A stretch of 64,000 nucleotides of DNA, taken from Escherichia phage PSD2002. The notes below the pieces were generated by a model, which ran no database searches, was not told where the DNA came from, and saw only the letters and a program-made list of their open reading frames with translations. The first letter of the stretch is position 1, and each line of letters opens with the position of its first letter. The DNA lies in the sequence record OK335775.1. The stretch is one strand, 5' to 3'. The position numbers and the translations under genes were made by a program. Positions 11,945-40,528 of this stretch are shown piece after piece.

Positions 11945-12594
11945 TTAAGATTCGCATGCCACCAAACAATAACCGTATGGTGAATGGTAAGAGCGTATAT
12001 TCACTATACTTAATGCTCAAACATCACTTCAATGCCAAATACGACGTTATAAAATATAACTGGGTCATGCGAATCTCTGATACGGCTTATCAAAAACGTC
12101 GTGACAAATATTTCTTTGAGAAATTGAGTGATAAATACACTTTGAAAGAGCTTGCTCTTATCTTCATGAGTAACTTGGTGGCTAACCAAGACGCATGGAT
12201 TGGCGACATCAGTGATGCTGACGCCTTAGTCTTTTACCGAGAATATATCGGTAGACTTAAAAGAATAAAACAAGTTTTTGAGGATGATATCAAAAACATC
12301 TATTATTTCAGTAAGAAAGTGGAAGTTAAAGCGCTTTCTGAAATTTTTGATTATAATAAAAAAGTTAACTCGAGCTATATTTTTAAGCTCCTTCAATCGA
12401 ATGTTATTTCATTCGAAACGTTTATTTTGCTTGATTCATTTATGGATATAATTGATAAACATGATGAACAGACCAACGATTTAGTGTGGTCTAAGTATTC
12501 GACTAAATTAAATGCTTACAAAAAAATTCTTATAGTAGATTCTATTGAGGCTCGTAAATTGTTCATTGAAACAATTAAGGGTTGTAAATTTTGA
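11941..12594 (+). CDS. 59: Helicase loader gp59
   Basis: 217 aa; ...DVIKYNWVMRISD..YQKRRDKYFF...LVANQDAWIGDISDADALVFYREYIGRLK... matches T4 gp59. Confidence 0.9.
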   Translation: MIKIRMPPNNNRMVNGKSVYSLYLMLKHHFNAKYDVIKYNWVMRISDTAYQKRRDKYFFEKLSDKYTLKELALIFMSNLVANQDAWIGDISDADALVFYREYIGRLKRIKQVFEDDIKNIYYFSKKVEVKALSEIFDYNKKVNSSYIFKLLQSNVISFETFILLDSFMDIIDKHDEQTNDLVWSKYSTKLNAYKKILIVDSIEARKLFIETIKGCKF

Positions 12595-13226
12595 ATATAG
12601 TTTATAAAATGACTTGGCTTAATCGTCAGGCTAATAATATTAAGCCGTTTTCGTACATAGGTTCTAAAACTAATTGTACTTTTGAAAATGGCGTGATTAT
12701 TGACTGTAAAGGTAAAGAGTATTGGACCTCTTGCGAGCAATCAAGATTTAAAGAGGCCATCGAAGAAGAAAAACCTATTGTTGAAATTTTGGCTATAACG
12801 CCATTTGATATTGTTATTAATATTGAACGTTCAGAACAATTGGAAGTTCAAGCTAGAGATAATGATGATTATTTTAATTTGGTTTATGCCGGTGGCGGAT
12901 TTGGAGTCTTTGGATGCACTCACCCAGCCAAACGTCCTGAAGTTAGAGCCCATATGAAAGCTGCTAACTATATGAATCAACCCGATTACCGTCCTTGGAA
13001 AACTTCTAGAGCAAACCCTTTAGATTGGATGCTTAGTGATATTGCTTATACTAATTATTGTATAATTAATTCTAGTGGAAGAGCTTGTGGATGGAGGCGT
13101 CTCATTAACTCTGGTATAAATGTTAGTGAAACTACATCAAAGAGTATGATTAAACAATTTAATGAGGGTTGGATTCCTAATGATGACCCTGAATTCATTA
13201 AGTTAAAAATGCTTTATTCGAAGTGA
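12591..13226 (+). CDS. GIY-YIG family (Seg-like) homing endonuclease, free-standing, between genes 59 and 32
   Basis: 211 aa from TTG at 12591 overlapping gp59 TGA (TTGA); N-terminus IVYKMTWLNRQANNIKPFSYIGSKTN fits GIY...YIGS motif; FGVFGCTHP...EVRAHMKAAN resembles I-TevI linker / NUMOD3 region; same location as segG in T4. Catalytic residues not all evident, may be degenerate. Confidence 0.5.
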   Translation: MNIVYKMTWLNRQANNIKPFSYIGSKTNCTFENGVIIDCKGKEYWTSCEQSRFKEAIEEEKPIVEILAITPFDIVINIERSEQLEVQARDNDDYFNLVYAGGGFGVFGCTHPAKRPEVRAHMKAANYMNQPDYRPWKTSRANPLDWMLSDIAYTNYCIINSSGRACGWRRLINSGINVSETTSKSMIKQFNEGWIPNDDPEFIKLKMLYSK

Positions 13227-13324: not shown

Positions 13325-14236
13325 ATGTCTATGTTTAAACGCCGTAATCCTGCTGAACTTGCTGCTCAACTGTCTGCAATGAAAGGTGGCTCTTCTTTCT
13401 CGTCTGATGACAAATCCGAATGGAAATTGAAAGATGACAATGGCGTAGGAACCGCAGTTATTCGATTCCTTCCTTCGAAAAACGAAGCTAATCCATCCCC
13501 ATTCGTTAAGCTTGTTAACCATGGTTTTAAGAAAAATGGTCAGTGGTATATCGAATCATGTACGTCTACTCATGGTGATTTCGATTCATGTCCTGTATGT
13601 AAATACATGAACCAGAATGATACCTTTAATACTAATAATGCCGAATACAAACTGATGAAACGTAAAACTTCCTTCTGGGCTAACATCCTTGTTATTAAGG
13701 ATAGTGCAGTGCCTGCTAACGAAGGTAAAGTGTTTAAATTCCGTTTCGGTCAGAAAATTATGGATAAAATCAACCAGATGGTTGAAGTTGATACCGATAT
13801 TGGTGAAGTGCCGGTTGACGTAACATGTCCGTTTGATGGTGCGAACTTCGTACTGAAATCTAAGAAAGTTGGCGACTTCAAGAACTATGACGATTCCAAA
13901 TTCATGGGTCAGTCTGAAATTCCTAACATCAATGATGAAGCTTACCAAGCTAAATTGATGGAAGAAATGCACGACCTTTCTAAACTGCTCGATTTCAAAT
14001 CATTCGAAACTAACGAAGCCAAGTTTAAGAAAGTTGTTGGTACAGCTGCTCTTGGTGGTGCTGCCGCTAAAGCTTCTGCAGCCGCTGATAAGATTGGTGA
14101 TGACCTGGACGCATTCAGTGCAGACCTTGATGCATATGATTCTAAACCATCTACACCGACTCGTTCCACTACTCCTGAGCCGTCAGTAAGTCCTTCTGAT
14201 GACGATGGTCTGGACGACCTGTTAGCTGGTCTATAA
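13325..14236 (+). CDS. 32: ssDNA-binding protein gp32
   Basis: 303 aa (301 aa from second ATG at 13331, T4 length); [13 protein letters not shown]...[10 protein letters not shown]...[12 protein letters not shown]...WANILVIKD...GKVFKFRFG... and acidic C-terminus match T4 gp32. Confidence 0.9.
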
Positions 14237-14252
14237 GTTATTGATTTATAAT

Positions 14253-14278
14253 GGGAAGACTTCGGTCTTCCCTTTTTG
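14253..14278 (+). terminator. Rho-independent terminator after gene 32
   Basis: gggaagac-ttcg-gtcttccc stem-loop followed by TTTTT. Confidence 0.7.
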
Positions 14279-14288
14279 GCATTTAATG

Positions 14289-14317
14289 GTTTACAACGCC
14301 TTTAAACATGATACTAT
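14289..14317 (+). promoter_or_regulatory. T4-type early promoter (PeSL-like cassette copy 1)
   Basis: gtttac + 17 nt + tactat; about 43 nt identical to the copy at 14995. Confidence 0.6.
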
Positions 14318-14346
14318 AGACCTATCAACTACATGAGGAAATAAAA

Positions 14347-14730
14347 ATGGAAATCGGTAAAAAATACGAACTTCGTCCTGAGCGTATCAAAGCTTTTATT
14401 AATATCACCCCTATCAATAATAACGATATGGTGGATATTATCCAAGACAATGGTGGTTGGTTTGAAGTAAAGGATACGATGACCTCGGATGGGGATAAAT
14501 TTGTAACTAAAATCAAATGTGCGAATGGTAAGATTTTTAGTGCAGACGGGACACTAGAGGAATATTTTGAATTGCATGAAGATGAGTTCTATTGCTTCCG
14601 TGAATGTGCTGAACAAGACGAAGTTGACGAACCCGTTACTAAGGTGGGCGTGACTCAAATCCATTGCATTGTTACCGAACAGAACGTTGACCAAATCATT
14701 GAACTTTTGCAAAAAACTTTTAAGGCCTAA
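14347..14730 (+). CDS. Hypothetical early protein (frd-32 intergenic block)
   Basis: 127 aa ORF with GAGGAA RBS directly after early promoter; no recognisable motif. Confidence 0.5.
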   Translation: MEIGKKYELRPERIKAFINITPINNNDMVDIIQDNGGWFEVKDTMTSDGDKFVTKIKCANGKIFSADGTLEEYFELHEDEFYCFRECAEQDEVDEPVTKVGVTQIHCIVTEQNVDQIIELLQKTFKA

Positions 14731-14731
14731 T

Positions 14732-14992
14732 ATGACTAAAGATGATTTCCTGGATGCAGTAGAAAAAGCCAGTGAGAAATTTGAAGTGATGGGTGTACGA
14801 GTTCATAAAGACCGAAATTACGGGCTCGATATCCAAACTTATTCATTATGGCTTGTAGGTGAACATAGTCTTGTAACCACCTTAGTTATGGGTGTTGATG
14901 CCCAACCTTTACTGGTTAAATTTAGAAGTATGGAAAAAGCTACCAAAGAAATGATTAAACTTGGTAAATGGCTTGATAAAATTCAAAAATAA
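14732..14992 (+). CDS. Hypothetical early protein
   Basis: 86 aa from first in-frame ATG after upstream stop (track ORF 14669..14992 overlaps previous gene). Confidence 0.45.
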   Translation: MTKDDFLDAVEKASEKFEVMGVRVHKDRNYGLDIQTYSLWLVGEHSLVTTLVMGVDAQPLLVKFRSMEKATKEMIKLGKWLDKIQK

Positions 14993-14994
14993 AT

Positions 14995-15023
14995 GTTTAC
15001 AACGCCTTTAAACATGATACTAT
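14995..15023 (+). promoter_or_regulatory. T4-type early promoter (PeSL-like cassette copy 2)
   Basis: Same 43-nt sequence as 14289-14331. Confidence 0.6.
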
Positions 15024-15055
15024 AGACCTATCAACTAATGAGTGAGGAAAATAAA

Positions 15056-15283
15056 ATGGCTAAGGTTAATATTGATATCGTTGATTTTGAATACACTTAC
15101 GAAGTTATCCGTAATCGTTATCCTTCTTTAGTTATGACCCATATTAAAGATACCCAATTCTGTAGTATGCAAATTGAAGTCCAAGGTCCTCTTGAAGACC
15201 TTACCCGCTTTATGGCTGACGAGTATTGTGACGGTATGCACCCGGAAGACACTAAATTTTATATGGGCTTAATTCAAAAATAA
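15056..15283 (+). CDS. Hypothetical early protein
   Basis: 75 aa from ATG with GAGGAA RBS (track start 15038 lies upstream of the RBS). Confidence 0.45.
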
Positions 15284-15313
15284 GTTTACACCAGGCTATG
15301 GTAGTGATACTAT
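15284..15313 (+). promoter_or_regulatory. T4-type early promoter
   Basis: gtttac + ~18 nt + tactat, then AAGGAG RBS. Confidence 0.55.
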
Positions 15314-15338
15314 AGCCTTATCAACTAAGGAGAATAAA

Positions 15339-17037
<1,699 letters not shown>

Positions 17038-21059: not shown

Positions 21060-22208
21060 ATGATTGAATTATATGATAACTTGATGGCCCTGGTTAAAAA
21101 CTCGACTAAATCTAAGTTCTTCTTTAAAGACTTTCAGAGTGCGCTAGGAGTCAACTATCGCATCTTTAGTTATAACTATGCATCGTACAGTGATTGGTTG
21201 GAAGACGGCGCACTAGAGTGCCGAGGCATTATGTTTGAAATGGACGAGAACGGTCCAGTACGTATTGCTGCTCGTCCTATGCAAAAGTTCTTTAACCTTG
21301 ACGAAAACCCTCTGACCATCGGTCTAGATTTGTCACCAGAAAATATTGACCTCGTAATGGCTAAGGAAGATGGTTCTCTGATTTCTACATTCATGGACCG
21401 ACAGTATCTTTCTGTTAAATCTAAAGGCTCTATCCATTCATCAATGGTGCATGATTCTTTACGGTTCCTTCGTCTCCCTGAGAACGAGGCCTTTGCCGCA
21501 CGTCTAGAAGAAATCACTAAAGCTGGGTATACCTGCAACCTTGAATATGTAGCACCTACCAACCGTATCGTTCTGGCTTACCAAGAAACAAACCTCATCC
21601 TGTTGAACGTTCGTAATAATGAAACAGGTGAATATATTCCGTATGCTGAATTGTTTAAAGATGGTGCCCTGCGTAAGCATTTGGTTGAAAGTTATGAGCT
21701 CGCTGAGGGCGATTTCGTAGAAAACATCCGTAAGCAGGAAGGCATTGAAGGTTTCATCTTTGTACTGAAAGATGGTACGTTCTTTAAACTCAAAACCGCC
21801 TGGTACAGTGCACTGCATCATACCAAAGATTCCATTAACAATAACGAACGTTTGTTTGAAGTTGTAGTGGCTGGTGGTACTGATGACCTTCGTGGTCTGT
21901 TCAGTACGGATTCGTTTGCTATCGAGAAAATCGATGCCTTTGAACGTATCCATTTAGATTACTTAGAACAATCATTAGCCTTGTTAGAAGCAGCGTACTC
22001 CCAACTTAAGGGTCGCGACCGTAAGGACTACGCCGTTACTGGTCAACTAATCCTTAAGGACTTTCCAGGGTTGTTCTCTATTCTTATGCAGGCGTACGTA
22101 GGCGGCATTAATTATGATACGGTCATGGACCAGATTAACTCTGTGTTCTTGAAAAACCATAAAGCCCAAATCCCTGAAAAATATTTGAAAGAAATTGTGG
22201 TAGAGTAG
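21060..22208 (+). CDS. rnlA: RNA ligase 1 / tail fibre attachment protein gp63
   Basis: 382 aa; YRIFSYNYASYSDWL..ALECRGIMFEMD...EDGSL (ligase lysine-motif region) matches T4 Rnl1. Confidence 0.85.
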   Translation: MIELYDNLMALVKNSTKSKFFFKDFQSALGVNYRIFSYNYASYSDWLEDGALECRGIMFEMDENGPVRIAARPMQKFFNLDENPLTIGLDLSPENIDLVMAKEDGSLISTFMDRQYLSVKSKGSIHSSMVHDSLRFLRLPENEAFAARLEEITKAGYTCNLEYVAPTNRIVLAYQETNLILLNVRNNETGEYIPYAELFKDGALRKHLVESYELAEGDFVENIRKQEGIEGFIFVLKDGTFFKLKTAWYSALHHTKDSINNNERLFEVVVAGGTDDLRGLFSTDSFAIEKIDAFERIHLDYLEQSLALLEAAYSQLKGRDRKDYAVTGQLILKDFPGLFSILMQAYVGGINYDTVMDQINSVFLKNHKAQIPEKYLKEIVVE

Positions 22209-22236
22209 TTTACATCTCCTCATGATGTGTTAGTAT
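22208..22236 (+). promoter_or_regulatory. T4-type early promoter for alc, embedded in 8-bp inverted repeat
   Basis: gtttac + 17 nt + tagtat; ctcctcat ... atgaggag inverted repeat spans promoter and RBS. Confidence 0.55.
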
Positions 22237-22266
22237 AGACTTACCAACTAATGAGGAGAAAACAAA

Positions 22267-23395: not shown

Positions 23396-23499
23396 TTGAA
23401 GCGTGTACTGATGGATGGGATATTGTTAGATTTGGTTTTGTCTGCTTTTGTTTTGGAATTCTGATTAGTATATGTATTGGCGGTCTTTTCGGAAAGTAG
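23392..23499 (+). CDS. Small hydrophobic protein (single TM)
   Basis: 35 aa from ATG with GAGGAG RBS, ATGA overlap with o-spanin stop; FGFVCFCFGILISICIGGLF hydrophobic segment. Confidence 0.35.
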   Translation: MIEACTDGWDIVRFGFVCFCFGILISICIGGLFGK

Positions 23500-23528
23500 T
23501 TTACAAACTCTTGGGAGCAGAGTATAAT
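23499..23528 (+). promoter_or_regulatory. T4-type early promoter
   Basis: gtttac + ~18 nt + tataat, -10 flanked by ggagc/gctcc inverted repeat. Confidence 0.55.
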
Positions 23529-23562
23529 GCTCCTACGGATTATAAAATTTGAGGAAATTATT

Positions 23563-24041
23563 ATGACTTTACGTGATAACAGTTTTGTGGCTAAGCCTGA
23601 ATACATTTCAGGCGTTAAATCTCCTGTATTACAAAAGCTCTTAAAATTAGGGTCCTGTGCAAGTACACCGCTTGAAAAGAAGGCAACTTTCAATTTTGCT
23701 TGGGCTATTGTGGACGGTATTGATGTAGTAAGACAGGTAACTTTTTATGCTCCAGGGTCTATTGAGCCTTCGCAGATTATTAATTTGAATGGAAGTAATT
23801 ATATCACCATCCAACAATGGTATCGTATGATGCGCCCGGTTTGGGAATACCCTGAATTCATTGAAGAGTACAATGAAAAAGAACGTATTCGCGAGCTAGT
23901 AAAAAGTTTTGAATATGCGGCTAAACGCCATGGACAAATGCAATCCGCAGTAACCCTCGGTGATGTTCCTGAAAGTGTTGCTTACGAATCAGGTAAAACC
24001 CTTAAAACTTGCCGTGAAGAACTTTATAAGGAACTTGGTGT

Positions 24042-25939: not shown

Positions 25940-25969
25940 GTTTACACTATGGTAGGACTGTGGTATAGT
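25940..25969 (+). promoter_or_regulatory. T4-type early promoter inside 9-bp inverted repeat (PeSL-like)
   Basis: gtttac + 17-18 nt + tatagt; ggtaggact ... agtcctacc flanks the -10. Confidence 0.55.
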
Positions 25970-25999
25970 AGTCCTACCGAAACAAATGAGGAAATCGAA

Positions 26000-27329: not shown

Positions 27330-27634
27330 TGAATATTTTATTTGAAAAACCTAAACAAGTGGTTACTGTTGATTACACAGATACATTTATTGATGCTCTT
27401 CTCCAAAAAGGTATCAAATCTATTAAAGTAGGTCCACTTTATGTTATTGAACAGCTTAAAGGCAATTCTACTGGCGAAATTTCGACTCATTCTACTAGTG
27501 ATATCGAATATGTTATCGACCAATTGGTAAATGTAAACCCAGAATTGGTATTAGTCCGTGAAGTTCGTAAAGAAACTCGTGGCGGCGAAACCAAGTATAT
27601 TGTCCGCATTGATTATATAAAAATCGAAGGCTAA
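27329..27634 (+). CDS. Hypothetical protein
   Basis: 101 aa ORF. Confidence 0.5.
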   Translation: MNILFEKPKQVVTVDYTDTFIDALLQKGIKSIKVGPLYVIEQLKGNSTGEISTHSTSDIEYVIDQLVNVNPELVLVREVRKETRGGETKYIVRIDYIKIEG

Positions 27635-27657
27635 GCATCCTAATTGAAGGAAACAAA

Positions 27658-28970: not shown

Positions 28971-29048
28971 GTTAAATCGAGGAGCCGTCGAACTGTTTGA
29001 TTAATGATTTGCGAATCATTATAGTTTTAAGACCCCAACAGTTTTACG

Positions 29049-29077
29049 GTGTACCTCTTGAATGTATTTTGTACTAT
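29049..29077 (+). promoter_or_regulatory. T4-type early promoter upstream of a long leader
   Basis: gtgtac + 17 nt + tactat; an additional promoter-like ttga...tatagt with internal palindrome lies at 28995-29025. Confidence 0.4.
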
Positions 29078-29232
29078 CACGCGTCAGAAAAAGGTTATCT
29101 GTCTAAGTCGTGGTTGGTATGATGACGAGGTTTATGGTTATCCTGTCGTTAAATATCCTAAACCTATGTTCCCCTTGAGGGCTTGCGCAGGCAACGCCAA
29201 TAAGTCCTGCATCCTAATTTAAGAGATTTAAA

Positions 29233-29394
29233 ATGGCTAAGAAAGAAGTTAAAGTAGTTGACGGTACCTCTAAACGCGCTGGTTACAAGCGTGCGTCCAA
29301 CAAGCGTATCAATCAGGTAGTTGATAAGCTTCAAGCTCGTGCTCGTGCAGTATTGCGTGCAGATGCTGCTTGCTTTGGTAAGCCTCAGGCATAA
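29233..29394 (+). CDS. Small basic protein (53 aa), not in ORF track
   Basis: Manually translated MAKKEVKVVDGTSKRAGYKRASNKRINQVVDKLQARARAVLRADAACFGKPQA; followed directly by a strong terminator. Confidence 0.4.
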   Translation: MAKKEVKVVDGTSKRAGYKRASNKRINQVVDKLQARARAVLRADAACFGKPQA

Positions 29395-29399
29395 GTTAT

Positions 29400-29427
29400 G
29401 GGACTCCGAAGAGTCCCATTTTTGTTT
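29400..29427 (+). terminator. Rho-independent terminator
   Basis: gggactc-cgaa-gagtccc stem-loop followed by atttttgttt. Confidence 0.75.
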
Positions 29428-29446
29428 CTAAATCTTTAAAAAAATG

Positions 29447-29475
29447 GTGTACATCTCCGGTAGGCATGATACTAT
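29447..29475 (+). promoter_or_regulatory. T4-type early promoter in inverted repeat (PeSL-like), shared leader with 29889 copy
   Basis: gtgtac + 17 nt + tactat; tgtacat...atgtaca inverted repeat; downstream leader tatagac.tgtaccaaataatacgaaaacaaact repeated at 29914. Confidence 0.55.
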
Positions 29476-29516
29476 AGACATGTACCAAATAATACGAAAA
29501 CAAACTGGAGAATAAA

Positions 29517-29885
29517 ATGAAAATCAATCTTAACTCATATATCAAATGTAAAGACCACGACGGTTACAAAGCAATCGAAACTAAAGAAATGCAATGGCAC
29601 TTGTACAAAGAACAATTTGAATTTGTAGGTTGCATGACTCCGGAAGGTCCTTCTGATGACTTCTCTTGGAAAATTATGGTAACAAACTTTTTTACCGGTG
29701 ATACCTACGAACTGAAAACTATCATAACCGGTAAGATTCGTTGTAAGACCTATGAAGATGAAGAAACCGGTTATTCTGAAGATGTTACATGGTATCAAAA
29801 TGGTCGCACTACTGCTGATGAGTTGATTGAAAAAATGAAAGCCAAAGGTGAATTAAATTTAGATAATTGGATTAAAGTTGCATAA
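29517..29885 (+). CDS. Hypothetical early protein
   Basis: 122 aa ORF after early promoter. Confidence 0.5.
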   Translation: MKINLNSYIKCKDHDGYKAIETKEMQWHLYKEQFEFVGCMTPEGPSDDFSWKIMVTNFFTGDTYELKTIITGKIRCKTYEDEETGYSEDVTWYQNGRTTADELIEKMKAKGELNLDNWIKVA

Positions 29886-29888
29886 AAC

Positions 29889-29917
29889 AGTTTACTTTGG
29901 TACAGGTTGTGTTATTA
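29889..29917 (+). promoter_or_regulatory. T4-type early promoter in 9-bp inverted repeat (PeSL-like)
   Basis: gtttac + 17 nt + tattat; ggtacaggt ... acctgtacc. Confidence 0.55.
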
Positions 29918-29967
29918 TAGACCTGTACCAAATAATACGAAAACAAACTAAACCAAAGGATAATAAA

Positions 29968-30333
29968 ATGAACTACATCAACTTCGAACGTAAATATGTT
30001 TCTATCGGTGCGGTTGGTTCTAACGAATACATGTGTTTATGGGAGCATAAAAACGGTTCAGTTTGCGAAATCGACCATTGGGTTTCTCCTGATTATGTTT
30101 ATATGCGATTTGAAAATGGTATCACTCTTTCAATCACTAAAGAAGGTTCTTCTTTTAAAATAGCTTTAGATGATGATTTCCGTCAACGTGATTTAGGTAC
30201 TCATCCTTGCTGGAACGGCGTTAATCGTAAGCTTCTGGTTAAAACCTGGATTCGTCACATCCTGAGCAACCGAGCTAAACCTGAACACCTGGAAGCAATC
30301 TTTGATGTAGTTCTGAACGAATTCGATATCTAA
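29968..30333 (+). CDS. Hypothetical early protein
   Basis: 121 aa from ATG after repeated leader (track ORF start 29878 lies upstream of the promoter). Confidence 0.5.
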   Translation: MNYINFERKYVSIGAVGSNEYMCLWEHKNGSVCEIDHWVSPDYVYMRFENGITLSITKEGSSFKIALDDDFRQRDLGTHPCWNGVNRKLLVKTWIRHILSNRAKPEHLEAIFDVVLNEFDI

Positions 30334-30343
30334 TCTTAAAAAT

Positions 30344-30362
30344 GGAGGCTTCGGCCTCCTTT
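30344..30362 (+). terminator. GC hairpin with UUCG loop (terminator / processing signal)
   Basis: ggaggc-ttcg-gcctcc followed by ttt. Confidence 0.45.
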
Positions 30363-30374
30363 GAGGAAAATATT

Positions 30375-30662
30375 ATGTTTATGACCACTTATTTCGATAC
30401 TCGTAAAAATTTCTGTGAAGTTGTTTTCTCTAAAGCAGGTAAAGACGTTCCTGCCGACAAACAACCTACTCGTGAATCTATTAAGGCCTATGCTGATGTT
30501 GTATGCCCTGTAGAATTCCGTACTGTTAATGGTCGTGATACCTTAGCAATCACTAAGCTCAACCGTGATATCAATATCGACCCTAGTGCCGCCCGTGAAG
30601 TCAATACCTCTGACATCTATGGTGGTAATGTTAAATCACACGGCTTTCAGATGAGGTTCTAA
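30375..30662 (+). CDS. Hypothetical protein
   Basis: 95 aa from ATG with GAGGA RBS downstream of hairpin. Confidence 0.45.
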   Translation: MFMTTYFDTRKNFCEVVFSKAGKDVPADKQPTRESIKAYADVVCPVEFRTVNGRDTLAITKLNRDINIDPSAAREVNTSDIYGGNVKSHGFQMRF

Positions 30663-30857: not shown

Positions 30858-31070
30858 ATGTTTAAGAAATTGATTCAGAAATTATTAGGTACGGAAATGG
30901 TCGAAGTGACTTATCGTGTAACTGATTTATCTCCTGTGCATCCACAAGATGAACCATATACTAAAACAATTAAAATGCTGAAATCTGACGGCGGATTATC
31001 TATTAAAGACCGTCTACCTTGTTATGGTCATTGGGCTGATGTAGAGATTATCAGTGTCAAAGATATTTAA
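30858..31070 (+). CDS. Hypothetical small protein, tandem paralogue A
   Basis: 70 aa; MFKKLIQKLLG.E.VEVTYRV.DLSP......IISVKDI shared with adjacent ORF. Confidence 0.5.
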   Translation: MFKKLIQKLLGTEMVEVTYRVTDLSPVHPQDEPYTKTIKMLKSDGGLSIKDRLPCYGHWADVEIISVKDI

Positions 31071-31079
31071 GGAGTCTTC

Positions 31080-31292
31080 ATGATTAAGAAATTATTTAAA
31101 AAGCTGTTTGGCTTGGAACTGGTTGAAGTGACTTATCGTGTTATTGATTTATCACCGCCATATGCTTGCGATGAAGATGCTATTAAAACTGTTGTTATGC
31201 GAAAAACATATCGCGGGCAGTCAATTAAAGAAAGATTGCCAGATCATGGCATGTGGTATGCAACCAAGATTATCAGTGTCAAAGATGTCTGA
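31080..31292 (+). CDS. Hypothetical small protein, tandem paralogue B
   Basis: 70 aa; about 50 percent identical to 30858..31070 with conserved termini. Confidence 0.5.
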   Translation: MIKKLFKKLFGLELVEVTYRVIDLSPPYACDEDAIKTVVMRKTYRGQSIKERLPDHGMWYATKIISVKDV

Positions 31293-31743
31293 GTTAGAAA
31301 TCAGAAGTAATTTTCCGTGGCCATCGTGTGCATTAAGTAACTTTGCTAAATGGCCTTTCGTTATGGATGGTATCCAATTTGGAGGGCTCGAAGGATTCCT
31401 CCAAGGGTGTAAGGTGAGAAATCATGAACAACAAAAACGTATATTTGGGATGTCCGGTCTGGCCGCACAACAAACTGGAAGAGCTTATGCAAGAGCTGCG
31501 GACCGTGGGACGCTTTTCTGGCTTGGAATTCCCTTTTCAAGATACTCTACATCATGGAAAGAGTTGTATACAAATGCATATTTTGAAGCAGCGCTCCAAA
31601 ACAAAGGATTCCGCGACGCATTACAAGCTACAAAGGGCAAAGTTTTAAAGCATTCGATGGCGAGTCACCTTACAGAATGTGATACAATACTAACTGAAAA
31701 AGAGTTTATCGACATCCTAAACAAATTGAGAGATTTATTATGA
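31285..31743 (+). CDS. NADAR (YbiA-like) domain protein, putative ADP-ribose/N-glycoside hydrolase
   Basis: 152 aa from ATG overlapping previous stop; LSNFAKWPF.MDG..F.G.EGFLQG.K resembles YbiA/NADAR core (SNFA.WP...DG...E..FQA.K). Confidence 0.55.
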   Translation: MSELEIRSNFPWPSCALSNFAKWPFVMDGIQFGGLEGFLQGCKVRNHEQQKRIFGMSGLAAQQTGRAYARAADRGTLFWLGIPFSRYSTSWKELYTNAYFEAALQNKGFRDALQATKGKVLKHSMASHLTECDTILTEKEFIDILNKLRDLL

Positions 31744-32668: not shown

Positions 32669-34195
32669 ATGATTTTAGATATTTTAAACGAAATTGCTGC
32701 TATTGATTCTACTAAAGCTAAAGAAGCCATTATTGCTCGTGAAAAGGACAATGAGCTTCTGAAACGTGTTTATCGTATGGCTTATACCCGTCGTCTGAAC
32801 TACGGTATTAAAAAGTGGCCAGAACCTGGATTTACATCTCAATCCTTTGGTATGATTACTCTTGAAGACCTTCTTGATTTCGCTGAATTCACATTAGCCA
32901 CACGTAAGATTACGGGTAATGCGGCTATTGAAGAACTGGCTCAAATCATTGCTGATGCTAAGGCCCCGGATGCCGAGGTATTACGTCGTGTAATGATGCG
33001 CGACCTTGAATGTGGTGCATCGATTTCTATTGCTAACAAGGTTTGGAAAGGTTTAATCCCTGAACAACCGCAGATGTTGGCGAGTTCTTATGATGAAGCT
33101 TTGATTAAGAAAAATATTAAATGGCCAGCGTTTGCTCAATTAAAAGCTGATGGTGCTCGTTGTTTTGCCGAAGTTCGTAACGATGGTGTGACATTCCTTA
33201 CTCGTGGTGGTAATGAATACCAAGGGCTTCATCTTTTAGCTGCTGAATTAATGGCGATGACCGAAGAAGCTCGTCAACGTCATCCTAATGGCGTTATGAT
33301 TGATGGCGAATTAGTTTACCATACTCCTAAAGTTGAACCTAAAGCATCTAATGATTTGTTTAGTATGTTTGACGAGGAACTTCCTGAATTAAGTAAAGCC
33401 AAAGAATTCCAAACTGTCGCCGATCGTTCTACGTCAAATGGATTGGCTAATAAGGCTCTTCAAGGAACTATCACCCCATCTGAAGCCGCTGGTATGGTAT
33501 TACAGGCATGGGATTATGTCCCACTGGATGTCGTGTATTCTGAAGGCAAAATTAAAGGTGATAAGTATGATGTACGCTTTACAGCCTTAGAACTTATGGT
33601 GGCTCATAATGTCGTATTGCATGGCACAACGCGTGTTGAAGCTATCGAAAACCAGTGGGTTAATAATCTTGAAGAAGCTAAAGTCGTTTATAAGAAATAT
33701 GTCGACCAAGGTCTGGAAGGTATTATCCTTAAGAACATGGACTCCTACTGGGAAAACCGCCGTTCTAAGAATCTTATCAAGTTCAAAGAAGTAATCGATA
33801 TTGCTTTAGAAGTGGTGGGTTATTATGAACACTCGAAGGACCCTAACAAACTAGGCGGTGTTGAATTAGTATCACATTGTCGTCGAATTACAAGTGACTG
33901 TGGTTCAGGCTTTAAAGATACCACCCATAAGAAAGATAAATCAGGTAAAAAAGTATTGATTCCATTGGAAGACCGTCCTGATTTAGACCGTGAACTTCTT
34001 ATGAAACAAGCTCGTGAAGGTAAGTTGATTGGACGTATTGCTGACTGTGAATGTAATGGTTGGGTTCATTCTAAAGGACGTACTGATACTGTAGGTATTT
34101 TCCTTCCAATTATTAAAGGTTGGCGTTTCGATAAAACAGAAGCTGATACATTTGAAGATGTATTCGGGTCGTGGGACCAAACAGGACTTAATTAA
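32669..34195 (+). CDS. 30: ATP-dependent DNA ligase gp30
   Basis: 508 aa from MILDILNEIA; ligase motifs (KADGAR adenylation lysine, IDGELVY, EGIILK) and overall colinearity with T4 DNA ligase. Confidence 0.9.
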   Translation: MILDILNEIAAIDSTKAKEAIIAREKDNELLKRVYRMAYTRRLNYGIKKWPEPGFTSQSFGMITLEDLLDFAEFTLATRKITGNAAIEELAQIIADAKAPDAEVLRRVMMRDLECGASISIANKVWKGLIPEQPQMLASSYDEALIKKNIKWPAFAQLKADGARCFAEVRNDGVTFLTRGGNEYQGLHLLAAELMAMTEEARQRHPNGVMIDGELVYHTPKVEPKASNDLFSMFDEELPELSKAKEFQTVADRSTSNGLANKALQGTITPSEAAGMVLQAWDYVPLDVVYSEGKIKGDKYDVRFTALELMVAHNVVLHGTTRVEAIENQWVNNLEEAKVVYKKYVDQGLEGIILKNMDSYWENRRSKNLIKFKEVIDIALEVVGYYEHSKDPNKLGGVELVSHCRRITSDCGSGFKDTTHKKDKSGKKVLIPLEDRPDLDRELLMKQAREGKLIGRIADCECNGWVHSKGRTDTVGIFLPIIKGWRFDKTEADTFEDVFGSWDQTGLN

Positions 34196-34365
34196 TGAAA
34201 GTTTATTTAGAAACAATTGTTATATCAAATACAAATATTACGGCAGTCTCTCAAATCATCCTTGATTTTGAGGACGAAATAGCTTTTGCCGATTTTAAAG
34301 ATACCTTCGATGGCTATGAAAAAGGCCCTACATTCGAAGTATATCGTACACTGTTACCACTTTAA
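34195..34365 (+). CDS. Possible small protein (56 aa), not in ORF track
   Basis: ATG overlapping ligase stop (TAATG); followed by short GC hairpin; weak RBS. Confidence 0.3.
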   Translation: MKVYLETIVISNTNITAVSQIILDFEDEIAFADFKDTFDGYEKGPTFEVYRTLLPL

Positions 34366-34382
34366 GGCCTTCGGGCCTTTTC
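34365..34382 (+). terminator. Short GC hairpin with UUCG loop
   Basis: aggcc-ttcg-ggcct followed by tttt. Confidence 0.4.
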
Positions 34383-34385
34383 TGG

Positions 34386-34393
34386 CATAAATA
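34386..34393 (+). promoter_or_regulatory. Possible late promoter (CATAAATA variant) for Alt-like operon
   Basis: cATAAATA 22 nt upstream of ATG with AAGAGGA RBS; first base deviates from TATAAATA. Confidence 0.4.
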
Positions 34394-34415
34394 AGGTTAT
34401 TAAAGAGGAATTATT

Positions 34416-36311
34416 ATGTCCGAACAATTGAATGAGGTATTTGATGGTGATATAAATTTATCTGCTGTCAATTTAAACCCTAAACTTAAAGTCCCACAGA
34501 TTTGGAATATAAAGGCTGAAGGTAACGAGAACCTTGTTGCCCGCATGGTTTCATATACTTCCGAAGGCGATGTAATTCGTCAGGTTAAGCCTGGTGACAA
34601 GTATGTTCATGTCGTTTTAATGAGCCTATCGGCTAAAGGTTCTCCTGCCGAACTCAAAGGTGGATTAGGTACCAATCCTATTTCCGCTATTCGTTCTATA
34701 TTTGATATCGTCTATGAACAGGTCAAGGCCCTTCGTATGGACGCTGTTATGTTCCGTTTTCCTACCAAGAAAATGAAAGGGCAGGAAAAAGCTATACAGA
34801 GGGTATTGGCTAAATTAATAGCCTCTAGAGCAGGCGGACAGTTTAAAGTTCTTGATGCCTTGTATCAATTCACCGGTAAGCATTCGTATGTTTTTATCTA
34901 TCGTAAAAATAAAAATATAGAATCTATAAATGGTATTCCTAATATTAATTTAGAATTGTATACTAAAGTCGAATCTGAAGTCGGTGACGTGTATGTTTCA
35001 AAGAAAACAGGCGAAGATGTTACCAAACTAGAAGCTATAGCTAAGTCCATAGACGAAATAGAAAAATCACGTTCTGATAAAACTGTTATAACCAAAACAA
35101 AGGTTTCTAAACGTGCTGCTATCAATGCTTTATATCCTACAGCAGAGCCTACAGGATTGAGTAAATTTTCGGCAGAGCACAAAAAAGCTTATGCAGATTA
35201 TTCTGCTACTAGTTCCGTTCATTCTTCTGAAGATTCTAAAGAAAGCCAAATAGCTTTAGCCAGTAATAAAATATTAAAAGACACCTCTAAAGAAATGGCA
35301 GAATATTTGGATTATATTTTTAACGGTGTTAATCCATCATTTGAAGTAGACGAGCGCAAACTTAAACTAATTGCTGATATAAAGTTTGCTTTAGAGGCAT
35401 CAGATTCTTTAGATAAATCTAATAGTGTCATAGAGGCTTTAAAATCAGGTAAATCTCATGTAGACATTCTTAGACTAGTCGCTGCGGCCCTTTTAGATGA
35501 TTCAGTTAAAGGTACTTGGGCTAGAGAATCTAAAATCAAGGAAGTAATAAAATCCTTAGTAGCAGTTTATACAAAATCTATCCAACCGTTGTTTAAGATA
35601 TCTGATAATCCTAATTTATCCAAACCTCAAGAAGAGGCAGTCAAAAAGTATACTCGTGGCGGCTACAACCATATAAACAACTTTTTGCTAGGTAAAACAG
35701 ATACCACCGATGAAATGATAAAAATGATTGGTGAGTTGGATTCTACATTTGAAAATGGTACAAAACTTCCTAAAGGAACCATAGTGTATCGTTCTCAGAT
35801 AATGCCTACCGAAATGGCTTTGAATTCTATAAAACATAAGGTGATGTATCTTCCTATTTTTGCATCAACTTCATTGGCTCCTAATATTTTCGGTGAAATG
35901 GGTCATGCTCAATCCAACTTAGACCCTGAAGCTCTTTCTAGCGATATAGATAGTAATCTTGAAGACACCATTAAAAGTGCGACCGGAAGTGCTAGAGATA
36001 CCATTAAGCTAGGGTTAATTATTAAAGGTGCTGATAAAATTAAGGTTATTGTGCCCGGTGACTTGGCTAATTGGTCTACAGAAACCGAAGTAATTCTTCC
36101 TCGTGGGGTTATGCTTAAGATTAATAAAGTATACGGTGCTTCCAAGGGACCTATGGGTTCAATTGGTAAATATGTTTTAGTGGAATGTGAAGTTGTAGCT
36201 ACCGAGCAAATCACAGAGGAAGATTCATATAGCACCGGATTCTCGTTTGGAAATTATGATAGAATTATGTATGAAGATTCTATGGAAAAATTAGCAAATT
36301 TATTTAAATAG
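34416..36311 (+). CDS. Alt-like ADP-ribosyltransferase paralogue 1 (putative injected head protein)
   Basis: 631 aa; conserved N-terminal about 230 aa shared with two downstream ORFs; LNE/VF N-terminus resembles prohead protease cleavage/capsid-targeting site; C-terminal R-S-E ART signature (VYRSQ, FASTSL, TETEVILPRG). Confidence 0.7.
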   Translation: MSEQLNEVFDGDINLSAVNLNPKLKVPQIWNIKAEGNENLVARMVSYTSEGDVIRQVKPGDKYVHVVLMSLSAKGSPAELKGGLGTNPISAIRSIFDIVYEQVKALRMDAVMFRFPTKKMKGQEKAIQRVLAKLIASRAGGQFKVLDALYQFTGKHSYVFIYRKNKNIESINGIPNINLELYTKVESEVGDVYVSKKTGEDVTKLEAIAKSIDEIEKSRSDKTVITKTKVSKRAAINALYPTAEPTGLSKFSAEHKKAYADYSATSSVHSSEDSKESQIALASNKILKDTSKEMAEYLDYIFNGVNPSFEVDERKLKLIADIKFALEASDSLDKSNSVIEALKSGKSHVDILRLVAAALLDDSVKGTWARESKIKEVIKSLVAVYTKSIQPLFKISDNPNLSKPQEEAVKKYTRGGYNHINNFLLGKTDTTDEMIKMIGELDSTFENGTKLPKGTIVYRSQIMPTEMALNSIKHKVMYLPIFASTSLAPNIFGEMGHAQSNLDPEALSSDIDSNLEDTIKSATGSARDTIKLGLIIKGADKIKVIVPGDLANWSTETEVILPRGVMLKINKVYGASKGPMGSIGKYVLVECEVVATEQITEEDSYSTGFSFGNYDRIMYEDSMEKLANLFK

Positions 36312-36319
36312 GATAGATT

Positions 36320-38401
36320 ATGACCCAATTAAATGAAGTGTTCGAGTCCGAAGGTACACTGCCTGTTGTGAACTTGAACCCAAAACTTAAAGTACCTCAG
36401 ATTTGGAAGATTGGAGACGCGGAGTCTCAGTTAGTAGCACGTATGGTATCCTACGCTTCTGAAGGTGATGCTATTAAACAAGTTAAAATGGGTGATAAAT
36501 ATGCCCACGTTATCCTTATGAGCCTTTCAGCTAAAGGTTCGCCTGCCGAACTTAAAGGCGGCTTAGGCCCTACTCCTGTAGATGCGATTAATACTATTTT
36601 TGATGTGGTTTATGACCAAGTTAAAAAGCTTCGTATGGATGCCGTGATGTTCCGTTTCCCTACTAAGAAAATGAAAGGTCAAGGCCCTATCGTTCAACGG
36701 ATTATCCAACGTTTGGTAGCACAGAAAACCGGTGGACGTTTTAAAGTGGTTCCGGCTATGTACCAATTTACCGGTAAACATACTTACATCCTGGTAGTTC
36801 GTAAACAAGCTGATATAGAAGATATCAAAGGTATGCCTGGAATTAATGCTGAATTGTATACTAAGGTAGATTCTGATGTCGGTGAAGTTTATATTTCTAA
36901 AAAAGAAGGCGTACAGGTTACTAAAGAAACTGCTATCGCCGGTAGTATTGCTAAGGTTGAAGAACGTCGCACTGATAAAATGGTTATAACCAAGACTAAG
37001 ATTTCTCGACGTGCTATTGCAGCAAGTCAATCGTTAGAATCTTATCGTAATGAAAGTGGGCTGTTTAAGAAATATGAAGCTACTGCAGTAGATTTTAATA
37101 AACCGGCAACAGTTCCATTAATCCCTGAGGCCCAGGAAATGGTCACTAATAACAATTCTCCTGCGGCTAAAAATAAGGTTGCTAATATAGTAGCTGAAGG
37201 CACTGCTGAAGAATTGCATTACGACTATAAATTGTTCCCACTTCACGGTATTGGTGAAATCCAAGAGAAAATTAAAGAGAAAATTCTTACAGCTATCAAA
37301 AATGAACCTTTGACATCTGTTAAAGCCCTGGAAAAATATGCCTCTACCATTAATACCATTTTCGAAGAATATAAAGGCGAGTGGCTGGCTATCCATAACA
37401 GAACTCGTAAAGGCCAACCTGACGACGTCTGGAATGAATTAACCGAGTCCAAGTGGAAAGCAGCCAAGACTAAGTTCATTAAAAAACGTGTGTATAGTTT
37501 TGCTGGCGTAGGTGGTGGTATTATGGTCGATATTACTATTGCTCGTGAGGGCTCTAAATATACCCCATCACAAAAGCGCGGCATCAGAGAATATTGTGGT
37601 TCAGGATATACAGACATAAATAATCTTCTTTTAGGACGTTATAATCCCCAGAACTATGAGGTTATGAGCGAAAAAGATATCGAATCTGCAGTTAATAATT
37701 TGGATTCCGCTTTTGAAAATGGCGACCGTATACCAGAAGGCATCACAGTTTATCGTGCACAGAGTATGACTGCTCCTATATACGAAGCACTAGTTAAAAA
37801 TAAAGTGTTCTATTTCAGAAATTTTGTATCTACTTCTTTAACTCCTATAATTTTCGGACGTTTTGGTGTTACACACGCTGGTATTGGTCTTTTAGAACCG
37901 GAAGTTCGCAACGAATTGACAGTTGATAAAAATGAAGAAGGAATAACTATTAATCCTAATGAAATAAGAGCGTATAAGGAAAATCCCGATTACGTTAAGG
38001 TTCAAATAGGATGGGCCATTGATGGGGCTCATAAAGTTAATGTCGTATATCCAGGAAATCTCGGAATAGCAACTGAAGCCGAAGTTATTCTACCGCGTGG
38101 ATTAATGGTCAAAGTTAATAAAATAACAGATGCTTCTAATAATGATGGAACAACATCTAGTAATACAAAACTCATCCAAGCTGAAGTTATGACAACAGAT
38201 GAGCTTCAAGAATCTGTTGTATATGATGGTGATGTACTAATGGAAACCGGCGAGTTGGTCGTATATCAAGATGACTTCGATACTTCCGAAAGCCCCTTAT
38301 CTTTTGATTCATTTGTTAAATCTACACGGTTTGATGTACTGCCTCTTTTGGCTTCATGCATAGACCTCTATGACATCCCAGAAAAATTCATCCAAGGGTA
38401 A
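36320..38401 (+). CDS. Alt-like ADP-ribosyltransferase paralogue 2
   Basis: 693 aa; same N-terminal module; ART signature VYRAQ, FVSTSL, TEAEVILPRG. Confidence 0.7.
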   Translation: MTQLNEVFESEGTLPVVNLNPKLKVPQIWKIGDAESQLVARMVSYASEGDAIKQVKMGDKYAHVILMSLSAKGSPAELKGGLGPTPVDAINTIFDVVYDQVKKLRMDAVMFRFPTKKMKGQGPIVQRIIQRLVAQKTGGRFKVVPAMYQFTGKHTYILVVRKQADIEDIKGMPGINAELYTKVDSDVGEVYISKKEGVQVTKETAIAGSIAKVEERRTDKMVITKTKISRRAIAASQSLESYRNESGLFKKYEATAVDFNKPATVPLIPEAQEMVTNNNSPAAKNKVANIVAEGTAEELHYDYKLFPLHGIGEIQEKIKEKILTAIKNEPLTSVKALEKYASTINTIFEEYKGEWLAIHNRTRKGQPDDVWNELTESKWKAAKTKFIKKRVYSFAGVGGGIMVDITIAREGSKYTPSQKRGIREYCGSGYTDINNLLLGRYNPQNYEVMSEKDIESAVNNLDSAFENGDRIPEGITVYRAQSMTAPIYEALVKNKVFYFRNFVSTSLTPIIFGRFGVTHAGIGLLEPEVRNELTVDKNEEGITINPNEIRAYKENPDYVKVQIGWAIDGAHKVNVVYPGNLGIATEAEVILPRGLMVKVNKITDASNNDGTTSSNTKLIQAEVMTTDELQESVVYDGDVLMETGELVVYQDDFDTSESPLSFDSFVKSTRFDVLPLLASCIDLYDIPEKFIQG

Positions 38402-38404
38402 ATA

Positions 38405-40528
38405 ATGGAAAATTTAAATGAGGTTTTTGATAGTGATTCCGCTAAAAACTATCCAGTAACAAATCTTAAACCGGGTTCCGGTATTCCACAGATTTTCTCT
38501 ATCCAAGCACCAGGTAATGATAATCTGGTTGCTCGTATGGTATCTTATGCGTCTCAAGGAGACGCTATTAAAATGGTTAAGCCGGGCGACAAATATGTTC
38601 ATGTTATCTTAATGAGTTTATCTGCTAAAGGCGCTCCGGCAGAACTCAAGGGTGGTTTGGGTACCGATCCACTCGGTACACTGAACACCATTTTCGATAC
38701 CATATATGAACAAATAAACAAACTTAAAATGGACGCGGTTTTGTTCCGTTTCCCTACTAAGAAAATGAAAGGTAAAGGTCCTACCGTTCAGCGCGTATTA
38801 GCTCGCTTGGCTATGGCTCGTACCGGTGGTAAGTTTAAAGTTGTTGACGACATGTTCCAATTCAGCGGAAAACATACCTACGTTCTTTTAGTACGTCGTG
38901 GTGCTAGTATTGAAGATATCAAGGGTATGCCTGAAATTAATGCCGATCTTTATACTAAAGTTGAGTCTAAAGTTGGCGAAGTGTATGTTTCTAAGAAAAC
39001 CGGCCAGGCTGTAAGTAAGGTCGAAGCCGTAGCGGCATCTATTGCACAAGTTGAAGAGAAACGTACTGATAAGGCTGTCATTACTCGTACTAAGATTTCG
39101 CGTCGTATGGCAGCGGCGGCGCAGTATTCTACTGCTGAGCCTGAAACTTTGTCCTCTAAAGAATTGCAGGTTTATAACGAGTTTGAAGCTTCTGTACCGG
39201 TTCACACGGCTGAAGGCCCTGAGAACGAAGGTATTGAACAGATTAGTCAGAACTTTAAAAAAGGTGCCATTACTAAAATGCGTCAGGCTTCTCAGTTTAA
39301 ATCTAAGAGCGAGGACCTTGCCAACTTTAGATACACTATTGCTCTCACACACGCTTTAATGACTGATAGTAAATTTAAACTAAATTATGCTAATAGAGAT
39401 AAACAAGGGTTTGAAATTTACTCTAATAATATGGCATTTTTTAATACAGAAGTCGATAGACTTTTAAGTGGCCTTTCGCAAATCAATACAACCAATAGTC
39501 TGGATATTATTAAGAAAATTGTTAATAACCTGAGTACCCGTTTTAAGGGTTCCCCTTCAGAGAAAGCATCTAGAATTGCTTTCGCTATGGAAGCCGTTTA
39601 TAAACTGGTTAACGATTCTATTAGTGATGCATATGCTTATTCAGGCGAGCTCATTAAACCTAAGGACCTAACCAAAGATGAAAGCAATGCTATTATTGAA
39701 TATTGCGCGGCTGAATATGCTCCTATGAACTTATTCCTTTTAGGTAAACCTGAATCCGAAAACAATACAACGGCTATTAAATTGATTAAGGATTTAGACT
39801 CAGCATTTACTAAGGGTATTAAACTTCCTAAGGGTACTATTTTGTATCGTGGTCAGGATTTGCCATACAAAATTCTGCGCCATAATATCGATAACAAAAC
39901 ATTTTACTTTAAGAACTTTGTGTCAGCCTCATTAAAGCCTAACATCTTTGGTGAATTCGGTAAAAATTATATGGCCCTCGACAACCAAGCCGTTTTTGTT
40001 GGTGGTGAAGGTTCTTTGTCCTCCGCTGATGAGTTGTTTAAATTGGCTAGTGGTAGTTCATCTGATGTGGGTGAAGTCGATGACGAAGAGGTAGAATGGG
40101 AAGAAGACGAGTTTGGTAATCCAATTGCACCTGAAGGTCCTGCAGATAGAATTGCTGAAATTGGTATGGTTATTCGAGGTGCTGAAGCAGTTAAAGTTAT
40201 CGCTCCTGGTGACCTTACAGAATATGCCGAAGAAGCAGAAATTATCCTTCCGCGTGGATTATTGTTGAAGGTTGATAAAGTAGCGGCTTTTGCCATGAAT
40301 GATAGAGTATCTCACAAATACCTTATGGAAGCTACCGTAACGCCTCCTTCAGAGCTCAGCGAATCTGTTTACGATGGTGACCATTTGATGGAAACTGGTG
40401 AAGTTCGCCTGATGGATGGATTTAGTCAATTCTTGGTTAATGAATCCGTTTCTGAAAGCAACGAAGCTATGGAAATCCTTGCCGCGTCTTTGGATATCTC
40501 TTCTTTATCAAATAAATTCAAAATGTAG
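38405..40528 (+). CDS. Alt-like ADP-ribosyltransferase paralogue 3 (variant STS motif)
   Basis: 707 aa; same N-terminal module; ART signature LYRGQ, FVSASL, EEAEIILPRG; extra acidic insert (DDEEVEWEEDE). Confidence 0.65.
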   Translation: MENLNEVFDSDSAKNYPVTNLKPGSGIPQIFSIQAPGNDNLVARMVSYASQGDAIKMVKPGDKYVHVILMSLSAKGAPAELKGGLGTDPLGTLNTIFDTIYEQINKLKMDAVLFRFPTKKMKGKGPTVQRVLARLAMARTGGKFKVVDDMFQFSGKHTYVLLVRRGASIEDIKGMPEINADLYTKVESKVGEVYVSKKTGQAVSKVEAVAASIAQVEEKRTDKAVITRTKISRRMAAAAQYSTAEPETLSSKELQVYNEFEASVPVHTAEGPENEGIEQISQNFKKGAITKMRQASQFKSKSEDLANFRYTIALTHALMTDSKFKLNYANRDKQGFEIYSNNMAFFNTEVDRLLSGLSQINTTNSLDIIKKIVNNLSTRFKGSPSEKASRIAFAMEAVYKLVNDSISDAYAYSGELIKPKDLTKDESNAIIEYCAAEYAPMNLFLLGKPESENNTTAIKLIKDLDSAFTKGIKLPKGTILYRGQDLPYKILRHNIDNKTFYFKNFVSASLKPNIFGEFGKNYMALDNQAVFVGGEGSLSSADELFKLASGSSSDVGEVDDEEVEWEEDEFGNPIAPEGPADRIAEIGMVIRGAEAVKVIAPGDLTEYAEEAEIILPRGLLLKVDKVAAFAMNDRVSHKYLMEATVTPPSELSESVYDGDHLMETGEVRLMDGFSQFLVNESVSESNEAMEILAASLDISSLSNKFKM

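Follow-up and report, generated by a model that had tools for sequence, protein, structure and literature searches.

The stretch of DNA analysed here, hereafter the window, comprises 64,000 nucleotides of Escherichia phage PSD2002 (sequence record OK335775.1) and represents a Dhakavirus (JS98-like T-even) genome; across the compared stretch, its identity to deposited phages does not exceed 95%. We focused on the variable gene 32-frd interval, in which a 43-bp putative early-promoter cassette occurs in two identical copies, designated P1 and P2. The order at this locus is a SegG-like open reading frame (ORF), gene 32, a terminator, P1, frd.2, an orf232-like gene, P2, frd.3, a third cassette (P3), frd.1, frd and td, and P1, P2, gene 32, frd and td all lie on the same strand. 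The features from gene 32 to frd.3, including the Shine-Dalgarno (SD) sequences, are as follows.

13325..14236, + strand: gene 32 (single-stranded DNA-binding protein), from the ORF list; annotated as gp32 in all relatives.
14253..14277, + strand: intrinsic terminator of gene 32, GGGAAGAC-TTCG-GTCTTCCC then TTTTT, from a terminator scan.
14289..14331, + strand: P1, repeat copy 1, putative early promoter and start of the leader (exact match; 9/12 with TG in the promoter scan).
Parts of P1, + strand: -35 GTTTAC at 14289-14294, TG at 14309-14310, -10 TACTAT at 14312-14317, predicted start at about A14324.
14335..14338, + strand: SD GAGG of frd.2, 8 nt before ATG 14347.
14347..14730, + strand: frd.2-like gene, first gene of the module (Pfam FRD2 PF03197, 9.9e-38; 61.5% to T4 Frd.2).
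14732..14992, + strand: orf232-like gene of 86 amino acids, second gene of the module, orthologue of JS98 orf232 and VR7 gp254; no family in a Pfam search.
14995..15037, + strand: P2, repeat copy 2, the same putative promoter and leader start (exact match; promoter scan).
Parts of P2, + strand: -35 at 14995-15000, -10 at 15018-15023, predicted start at about A15030.
15044..15047, + strand: SD GAGG of frd.3, 8 nt before ATG 15056.
15056..15283, + strand: frd.3-like gene, behind P2 (Pfam Phage_FRD3 PF05798, 4e-38).

A scan of the window found the 43-mer GTTTACAACGCCTTTAAACATGATACTATAGACCTATCAACTA in two exact copies on the + strand, at 14289-14331 and 14995-15037, the distance from start to start being 706 bp. 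Allowing up to three mismatches brought up no further copy in the window, nor did any match arise in 100 shuffles. The exact match stops at both borders (the preceding base is G/T and the following base C/A), beyond which an imperfect similarity reaches through the SD to ATGG. No other exact intergenic direct repeat of the 64-kb window reaches the length of this pair; the longer repeat families are gene paralogues of roughly 70% identity. Our recount confirms the duplicated promoter described in an earlier note on this DNA: the copies match exactly over 43 bp, each is followed by a ribosome-binding site and a small ORF (GAGG and then the ATG of frd.2 or frd.3), and together they bracket the two-gene module 14347-14992.

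Each copy has the anatomy of a T4-type early promoter. The promoter scan recognized GTTTAC, 17 nt and TACTAT, with TG two bases ahead of the -10 box (TGnTACTAT), and both copies can alternatively be read as TTTACA, 16 nt and TACTAT. The consensus reported for T4/PST-type promoters of promoter early stem-loop elements (PeSLs) is TTTACW-N17-TAYWAT (PMC4122927), and both copies carry the -35 hexamer, spacer and extended -10 box of the PeSL/T-even type on the early-transcribed strand. A MotA-box middle promoter and a late promoter (TATAAATA) were also considered, and neither occurs in the sequence of the repeat on either strand. P1 is preceded by TTTTTGGCATTTAATG, and P2 by AAAATTCAAAAATAAAT running into GTTTAC, with a TAA 2 nt ahead of the repeat in an AT-rich stretch; the AT-rich stop context and the SD with its start codon, as known from PeSLs, are thus present. 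The gene 32 terminator (8 pairs, 5 of them GC, a loop of 4 and a T-run) is conserved in all Dhakaviruses, and T4 and VR7 have an analogous hairpin. Terminator and P1 form a terminator-promoter composite, and because P1 begins 17 nt past the hairpin, the block of small genes would be transcriptionally insulated from gene 32. At the orthologous place, T4 has gene 32, a terminator hairpin, an early promoter (GTTTACAAGC...TGGTACTAT) and frd.3, and its frd.3 RNA is reported to rank with the most abundant phage transcripts that carry an NAD cap and are therefore primary (bioRxiv 10.1101/2024.04.04.588121); no frd.3 entry was found in the supplement of the T4 dRNA-seq preprint. From the consensus, the extended -10 box and the SD and small ORF behind each copy, we infer that both copies act as T4-type early promoters in the window phage; the earlier note had already called them early promoters.

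The presence/absence comparison across relatives that the earlier note called for identified a genome without exactly the flanked module and with one cassette kept. In phage AnYang, gene 32 and its terminator are followed by a single cassette and then frd.3; the junction reads terminator, GTTTACAATGCC...CTACATGAGGAAAATAAAATGGCTAAGG (start of frd.3), and the end points of the deletion both fall inside the cassette. A query representing the module-less junction found a contiguous match in AnYang alone among 189 matching records, the other genomes that cover the whole query being split by an insert of ~690 bp or more. The AnYang arrangement is what recombination between the repeats would be predicted to leave. 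VR7 (Gaprivervirus) has the order 32-frd.2-orf254-frd.3 with two dissimilar promoters. As VR7 carries the module, the module is ancestral and its absence from AnYang a secondary loss; as the VR7 promoters are dissimilar, the similarity between P1 and P2 dates from the Dhakavirus lineage, probably as a homogenisation.

Short repeats can mislead assemblers and AnYang is a single record, and one may suspect that the second copy, or the single copy of AnYang, is an assembly error. However, among the 19 Dhakavirus genomes read base by base (18 deposited genomes and the window), 16 have the two-cassette layout with unique flanks, and the same spacing recurs in ~40 further records. IME540 has independently been found to carry the same 43/43 pair, and sequencing reads are longer than a repeat of 43 bp. 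An artefact is extraordinarily improbable on this evidence.

The distribution of spacer alleles bears on how the two copies became identical. P1 and P2 were paralogous wherever both were found, with 34-43 of 43 positions identical, and the window and IME540 are the only genomes with a 43/43 pair. The P2 spacers comprise a P1-like allele (AAYGCCTTTAAAC), AYCTGCTTTAAAC, a stem-forming allele (AAGGTCTATAGGC) and others. In collection-wide searches, the spacer of the window, AACGCC, was found at both positions in IME540 only, besides the window itself. It occurs at P1 alone in ABTNLS3 (collection-wide) and QL01 (base-by-base table), and at P2 alone in WG01, MX01 and LHE83, while AATGCC, the usual P1 allele, is found at P2 in FB and QL01. 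Alleles common to both positions are the expected product of ectopic exchange. We consider it probable that P1 and P2 are paralogous cassettes of early promoter, leader and SD, that their identity was homogenised by ectopic exchange, and that they provide a substrate for recombination.

If so, host sigma-70 RNA polymerase would start immediate-early transcripts at ~14324 and ~15030, P1 expressing frd.2 and the orf232-like ORF, and P2 re-initiating transcription for frd.3. The free spacer positions would have become identical through gene conversion or crossover between P1 and P2 in a lineage shared with IME540. The 43-bp repeats, or ~65-75 bp with the imperfect flanks, could then be used by phage homologous recombination or replication slippage; T4 recombination needs less than 50 bp of homology, and the mapped crossovers of PeSLs lie in the interval from the -10 box to the ATG (PMC2839356). 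One would expect a deletion of 706 bp, after which gene 32 and its terminator are followed by one cassette and frd.3, a 706-bp circle or, via unequal exchange, a duplication, as well as conversion between the copies and allele swaps with the cassette as a linker. Such variants would survive, because promoter, SD and gene junction stay in working order in every product.

The proper null for a 43/43 match is given by promoters of the same family, not by random sequence. The promoter upstream of motA in the Tequatrovirus ACG-C40 (886-960 of the compared segment) and a terminator-preceded promoter of an unrelated ORF at another AnYang locus (901-943 of the compared segment) are each identical to the repeat at 38 of 43 positions, and have the core CTTTAAACATGATACTATAGACCTATCAA in common. 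As these promoters are non-orthologous to P1 and P2, the repeat belongs to a conserved subfamily of early promoters, in which appreciable variation is seen only at positions 8-11, 14, 17 and 18 of 43. Members with this core, such as that of ACG-C40 motA, share with the repeat the -35 hexamer, the 17-bp spacing, the extended -10 box, much of the spacer sequence and the initial transcribed region. The copies elsewhere stand at unrelated loci in front of unrelated genes, whereas the pair in the window is direct, 706 bp apart and identical at the variable positions of the family too. A single base separates the P2 'B' spacer allele, ATCTGC, from TTCTGC, the spacer of the ACG-C40 motA promoter. Much of the 43-bp identity is subfamily conservation rather than recent duplication.

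The same data invite the explanation that P1 and P2 are identical through constraint only, as a strongly selected promoter subfamily, and that AnYang lost the module by an unrelated route, e.g., microhomology. Both the 38/43 matches of the non-orthologous promoters, with their few variable positions, and the other indels of the window/AnYang pair, which need only 5-6 nt of microhomology, would fit it. Nevertheless, orthologous P2 copies have three or four quite different spacers, so the P1 spacer is not functionally demanded, and P1-type alleles, the C/T variant included, are present at P2 in a subset of genomes. The dissimilar promoters of VR7 and the two AnYang end points within the cassette likewise argue against constraint only, and we regard it as unlikely.

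Several points weigh against homogenisation by exchange and recombination between the cassettes. Family conservation covers ~38 of the 43 positions, so that the signal of recent conversion would rest on ~5, and the C/T polymorphism at the spacer could recur by mutation. The deletion is known from one genome, AnYang, a single deposited assembly, and its junction is identical to the P2 leader found in VR5 and VR7, which leaves no way of locating the crossover within the cassette. Promoter activity is deduced from sequence. Furthermore, the single-ORF indels relative to AnYang at 23566-24041 and 27338-27657 are joined at start codons by 5-6 nt of microhomology (TATGA, AATGAA), which indicates that long cassette homology is dispensable for such events and represents one route among several. 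Finally, no circle was observed, and none of the 19 genomes read base by base contains a duplication product; of the suggestion that the repeats could drive deletion or duplication, the former is borne out by the exact module loss in AnYang, and the latter has no counterpart in these genomes.

The early promoters of the window differ in whether they are accompanied by a stem-loop. P3 and the gene that it heads are included in this comparison.

15284..15327, + strand: P3, third cassette, further diverged (60% to the repeat), heading frd.1.
15339..15602, + strand: frd.1-like gene (Pfam DUF5417, 3.4e-35; 69.6% to T4 Frd.1).

On the + strand of the window, perfect inverted repeats enclose the -10 box in their loop at P3 and at the promoters 23499-23545, 25940-25980 and 29890-29935, with their two arms in the spacer and at about +1 to +12. 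Their stems measure 7 bp (P3, AGGCTAT/ATAGCCT), 6, 9 and 12 bp, respectively; the promoter at 29447 has a 6-bp stem, and a stem of 8 bp at 22208-22260, also on the + strand, joins the spacer to the SD. The inverted repeats reported earlier at the -10 regions of the promoters 22208, 23499, 25940, 29447 and 29889 are thus reproduced, with stems of 6-12 bp and with the SD as the pairing partner at 22208. In 11 curated promoters, complementarity between the spacer and the +1 region averaged 5.55 within a promoter and 3.99 across promoters, and 7 of 20000 permutations reached the observed value; an automated promoter list, which included false sites and lacked 29447 and 29890, had given p ~0.04 and was replaced by the curated set. 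The stem arms bracketing the -10 box differ in sequence from promoter to promoter, as expected of a structure and not of a binding site that the promoters have in common. At the duplicated cassette, the same complementarity was at background (4 and 3 bp). The best fold of the P2 context (-5.1 kcal/mol, z -0.7) was no better than those of shuffles, and the sole significant fold of the P1 context was the gene 32 terminator (-11.2 kcal/mol, z -2.7). P2 alleles of the JS98 type form a 9-10 bp stem, GGTCTATAG/CTATAGACC (z -2.9). A search of the whole window against Rfam gave no family.

PeSLs were described in RB49/phi1 (Arbiol et al. 2010, PMC2839356) and in PST/T4 and nt-1/KVP40 (Comeau et al. 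2014, PMC4122927). The window cassettes resemble them in the succession of AT-rich stop, early promoter, SD and ATG, and in being repeated at short intervals in a hyperplastic region, with three cassettes (14289, 14995 and 15284) within 1 kb. They also flank small non-essential ORFs, and a close relative differs by an indel ending in cassettes. Five of the defining properties are accordingly found here, namely promoter, AT-rich stop context, SD with ATG, hyperplastic clustering and association with indels. P1 stands behind a GC-rich hairpin, as do PST/T4 PeSLs with a stem-loop just upstream of the promoter. In the stem-loop the likeness is only partial: the 43-bp unit has none, P2 has none in the window, and the hairpin at P1 is the ordinary terminator of gene 32, which lies outside the repeat. 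The PeSL label given in the earlier note thus fits in part: it suits the promoter, the SD, the clustering and the indels, but the repeated unit itself contains no stem-loop. Mini-circles, demonstrated for RB49/phi1, are a prediction at the window cassettes.

A full mobile PeSL would have its stem-loop bound by a dedicated protein, and its module would be excised as an encapsidated mini-circle and spread horizontally. Such a scenario could draw on the mini-circles of RB49 and phi1 (PMC2839356), on the significant inverted repeats that bracket the -10 box at several window promoters, and on the position of the frd.2 module relative to frd.3, which varies between T4, Dhakavirus and 04086/IME341. 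It is highly improbable for P1 and P2, as the repeated unit has no stem-loop (z -0.7 at P2, with spacer and +1 complementarity at background), the stems of the other promoters differ and so offer no common protein-binding site, and no recombinase is implicated.

Recombination between paralogous cassettes, which we favour, does not require the stem-loop, and it has other precedents. In Repoila et al. 1994, as summarised in PMC2839356 and PMC4122927, the internal-protein (IP) genes of T-even phages are shuffled around promoters; in these summaries, the conserved linkers are early promoters of the T4 type (not canonical sigma-70) that have weak AT-rich stem-loops, and small early genes are swapped around them among T-even relatives, as at our locus, which differs in being the gene 32-frd interval with other genes and not an IP locus. 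Deletion between short direct repeats (Albertini et al. 1982) and the homology requirement of T4 (Singer et al. 1982) are known to us as cited in the PeSL papers. A ~40-50 bp direct repeat, of which one copy is kept while the intervening DNA is lost, is the AnYang configuration. The difference is that the window repeats are, as far as promoter activity can be predicted, functional regulatory cassettes, so the deletion product would stay correctly expressed, which is the core point of the PeSL model.

Architectural variation at the locus agrees with the modular shuffling of small genes that the earlier note had suggested, as gene content and order vary across relatives. Five architectures of the gene 32-frd interval were found among the 19 Dhakavirus genomes, and the gene order of T4 is different again. 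There are at least three allele or paralogue types of frd.2, which precedes frd.3 in Dhakavirus and follows it in T4; in 04086 (2138-2640 of the compared segment) and IME341, frd.2 paralogues lie on both sides of frd.3, each with its own promoter. A scan of IMG/VR for the terminator-P1 junction yielded five contigs only, taken as deposited isolates, and no new architecture, and a metagenome scan yielded one contig only, 1 kb long and with frd.2a. A tandem duplication was considered as the origin of the repeated module borders and rejected, since the flanking genes are unrelated; an origin of the frd.2a-frd.2b tandem of JS98 via cassettes was also rejected, since its internal junction has no promoter.

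Besides the AnYang loss, a replacement and a second indel are associated with cassettes. The window and IME540 are 100% identical through the 3' end of gene 32, P1, orf232 and P2, but 77% identical in the 5' part of frd.2, where the window (14347-14600 region) is 97.6% identical to 04086. This part of frd.2 is a patch exchange with its left edge at the P1/ribosome-binding-site cassette. AnYang also lacks 29493-30362 (868 nt), with the boundaries between the -10 box and the SD; a similarity search of 29000-30400 alone was silent, and direct alignment to AnYang showed the indel. A second cassette pair is present in this region (29447-29506 and 29890-29949), 443 bp apart and with 40-nt leaders 93% identical, and the AnYang leader at the indel resembles the P2 leader.

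A homing endonuclease could be another source of mosaicism at the locus.

12591..13226, + strand: SegG-like homing endonuclease ORF of 211 amino acids, upstream of gene 32 (60% to T4 SegG, E 4e-85).

Pfam gave nothing for this ORF, and BLAST against T4 SegG alone identified it. It is present in some Dhakaviruses and absent from others, the difference from PSD9 being a 685-nt indel. Gene 32 is the target of the GIY-YIG homing endonuclease SegG of T4, which shows high-frequency inheritance when T4 and T2 co-infect (PMC2988022). The SegG-like ORF may contribute to local gene conversion or co-conversion. In its strongest form, a cut in gene 32 of a co-infecting genome without SegG would be repaired with long tracts, producing the mosaic and the homogenised cassettes with the repeats as by-products, and the window, IME540, MX01, FB and AnYang all carry the ORF. 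On the other hand, P1-like P2 alleles occur in QL01, WG01, PSD9 and E33 as well, where matches starting from query position 157 indicate no SegG-like ORF, and colinear copying of a donor tract explains neither why two positions became identical nor a deletion bounded by repeats. Co-conversion by SegG as the cause is distinctly unlikely, and ectopic exchange between P1 and P2 remains our preferred explanation.

The locus is a clear but ordinary case of the promoter-cassette gene shuffling already described in T4-type phages. It provides a natural example in which two identical cassettes as the substrate, AnYang as the predicted product and an outgroup for the polarity come together, at a locus not analysed in the PeSL papers: JS98 is named once in PMC2839356/PMC4122927, only for PeSL-like sequences near gene 43, the gene 32-frd locus is not described there, and a keyword literature search found no description of it. 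At the same time the locus tempers the PeSL model, as the recombining unit needs no stem-loop here, most of the identity is ordinary family conservation, and other ORF-precise indels of the same genomes use start-codon microhomology only. For phage engineering and the quality control of therapy phages, a low-frequency 706-bp deletion variant is predicted in stocks of the window phage.

It is attractive, though doubtful, to speculate further that the early-promoter cassettes of T-even phages are a multi-copy family in concerted evolution, in which ectopic conversion moves spacer alleles between positions, and possibly loci, adding or erasing stem-loops. In the lineage of the window, the spacer of P1 seems to have replaced that of a P2 with a stem-loop. 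If this speculation is correct, recombination would rewire read-through attenuation as well as gene content, and the stems bracketing the -10 box, the complementarity of which is kept with unrelated arms, would be a selected structural signal.

Downstream of P2, frd.3 is 98-99% identical to most relatives, and the segment of P3, frd.1 and frd (15284-16183) is ~80-92% identical to every relative examined, which suggests a further mosaic boundary near P3. Elsewhere in the window, ~33500-39700 holds three tandem paralogues of ~2 kb, roughly 70% identical (34536/36434/38528; 34833/36731/38825), which are adjacent genes for Alt-like NAD-arginine ADP-ribosyltransferases according to the PSD9 annotation. 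Tandem small paralogous ORFs with a 222-bp period and 78-89% identity lie at 30858-31293, and their copy number differs from that in AnYang (480 vs 42 nt).

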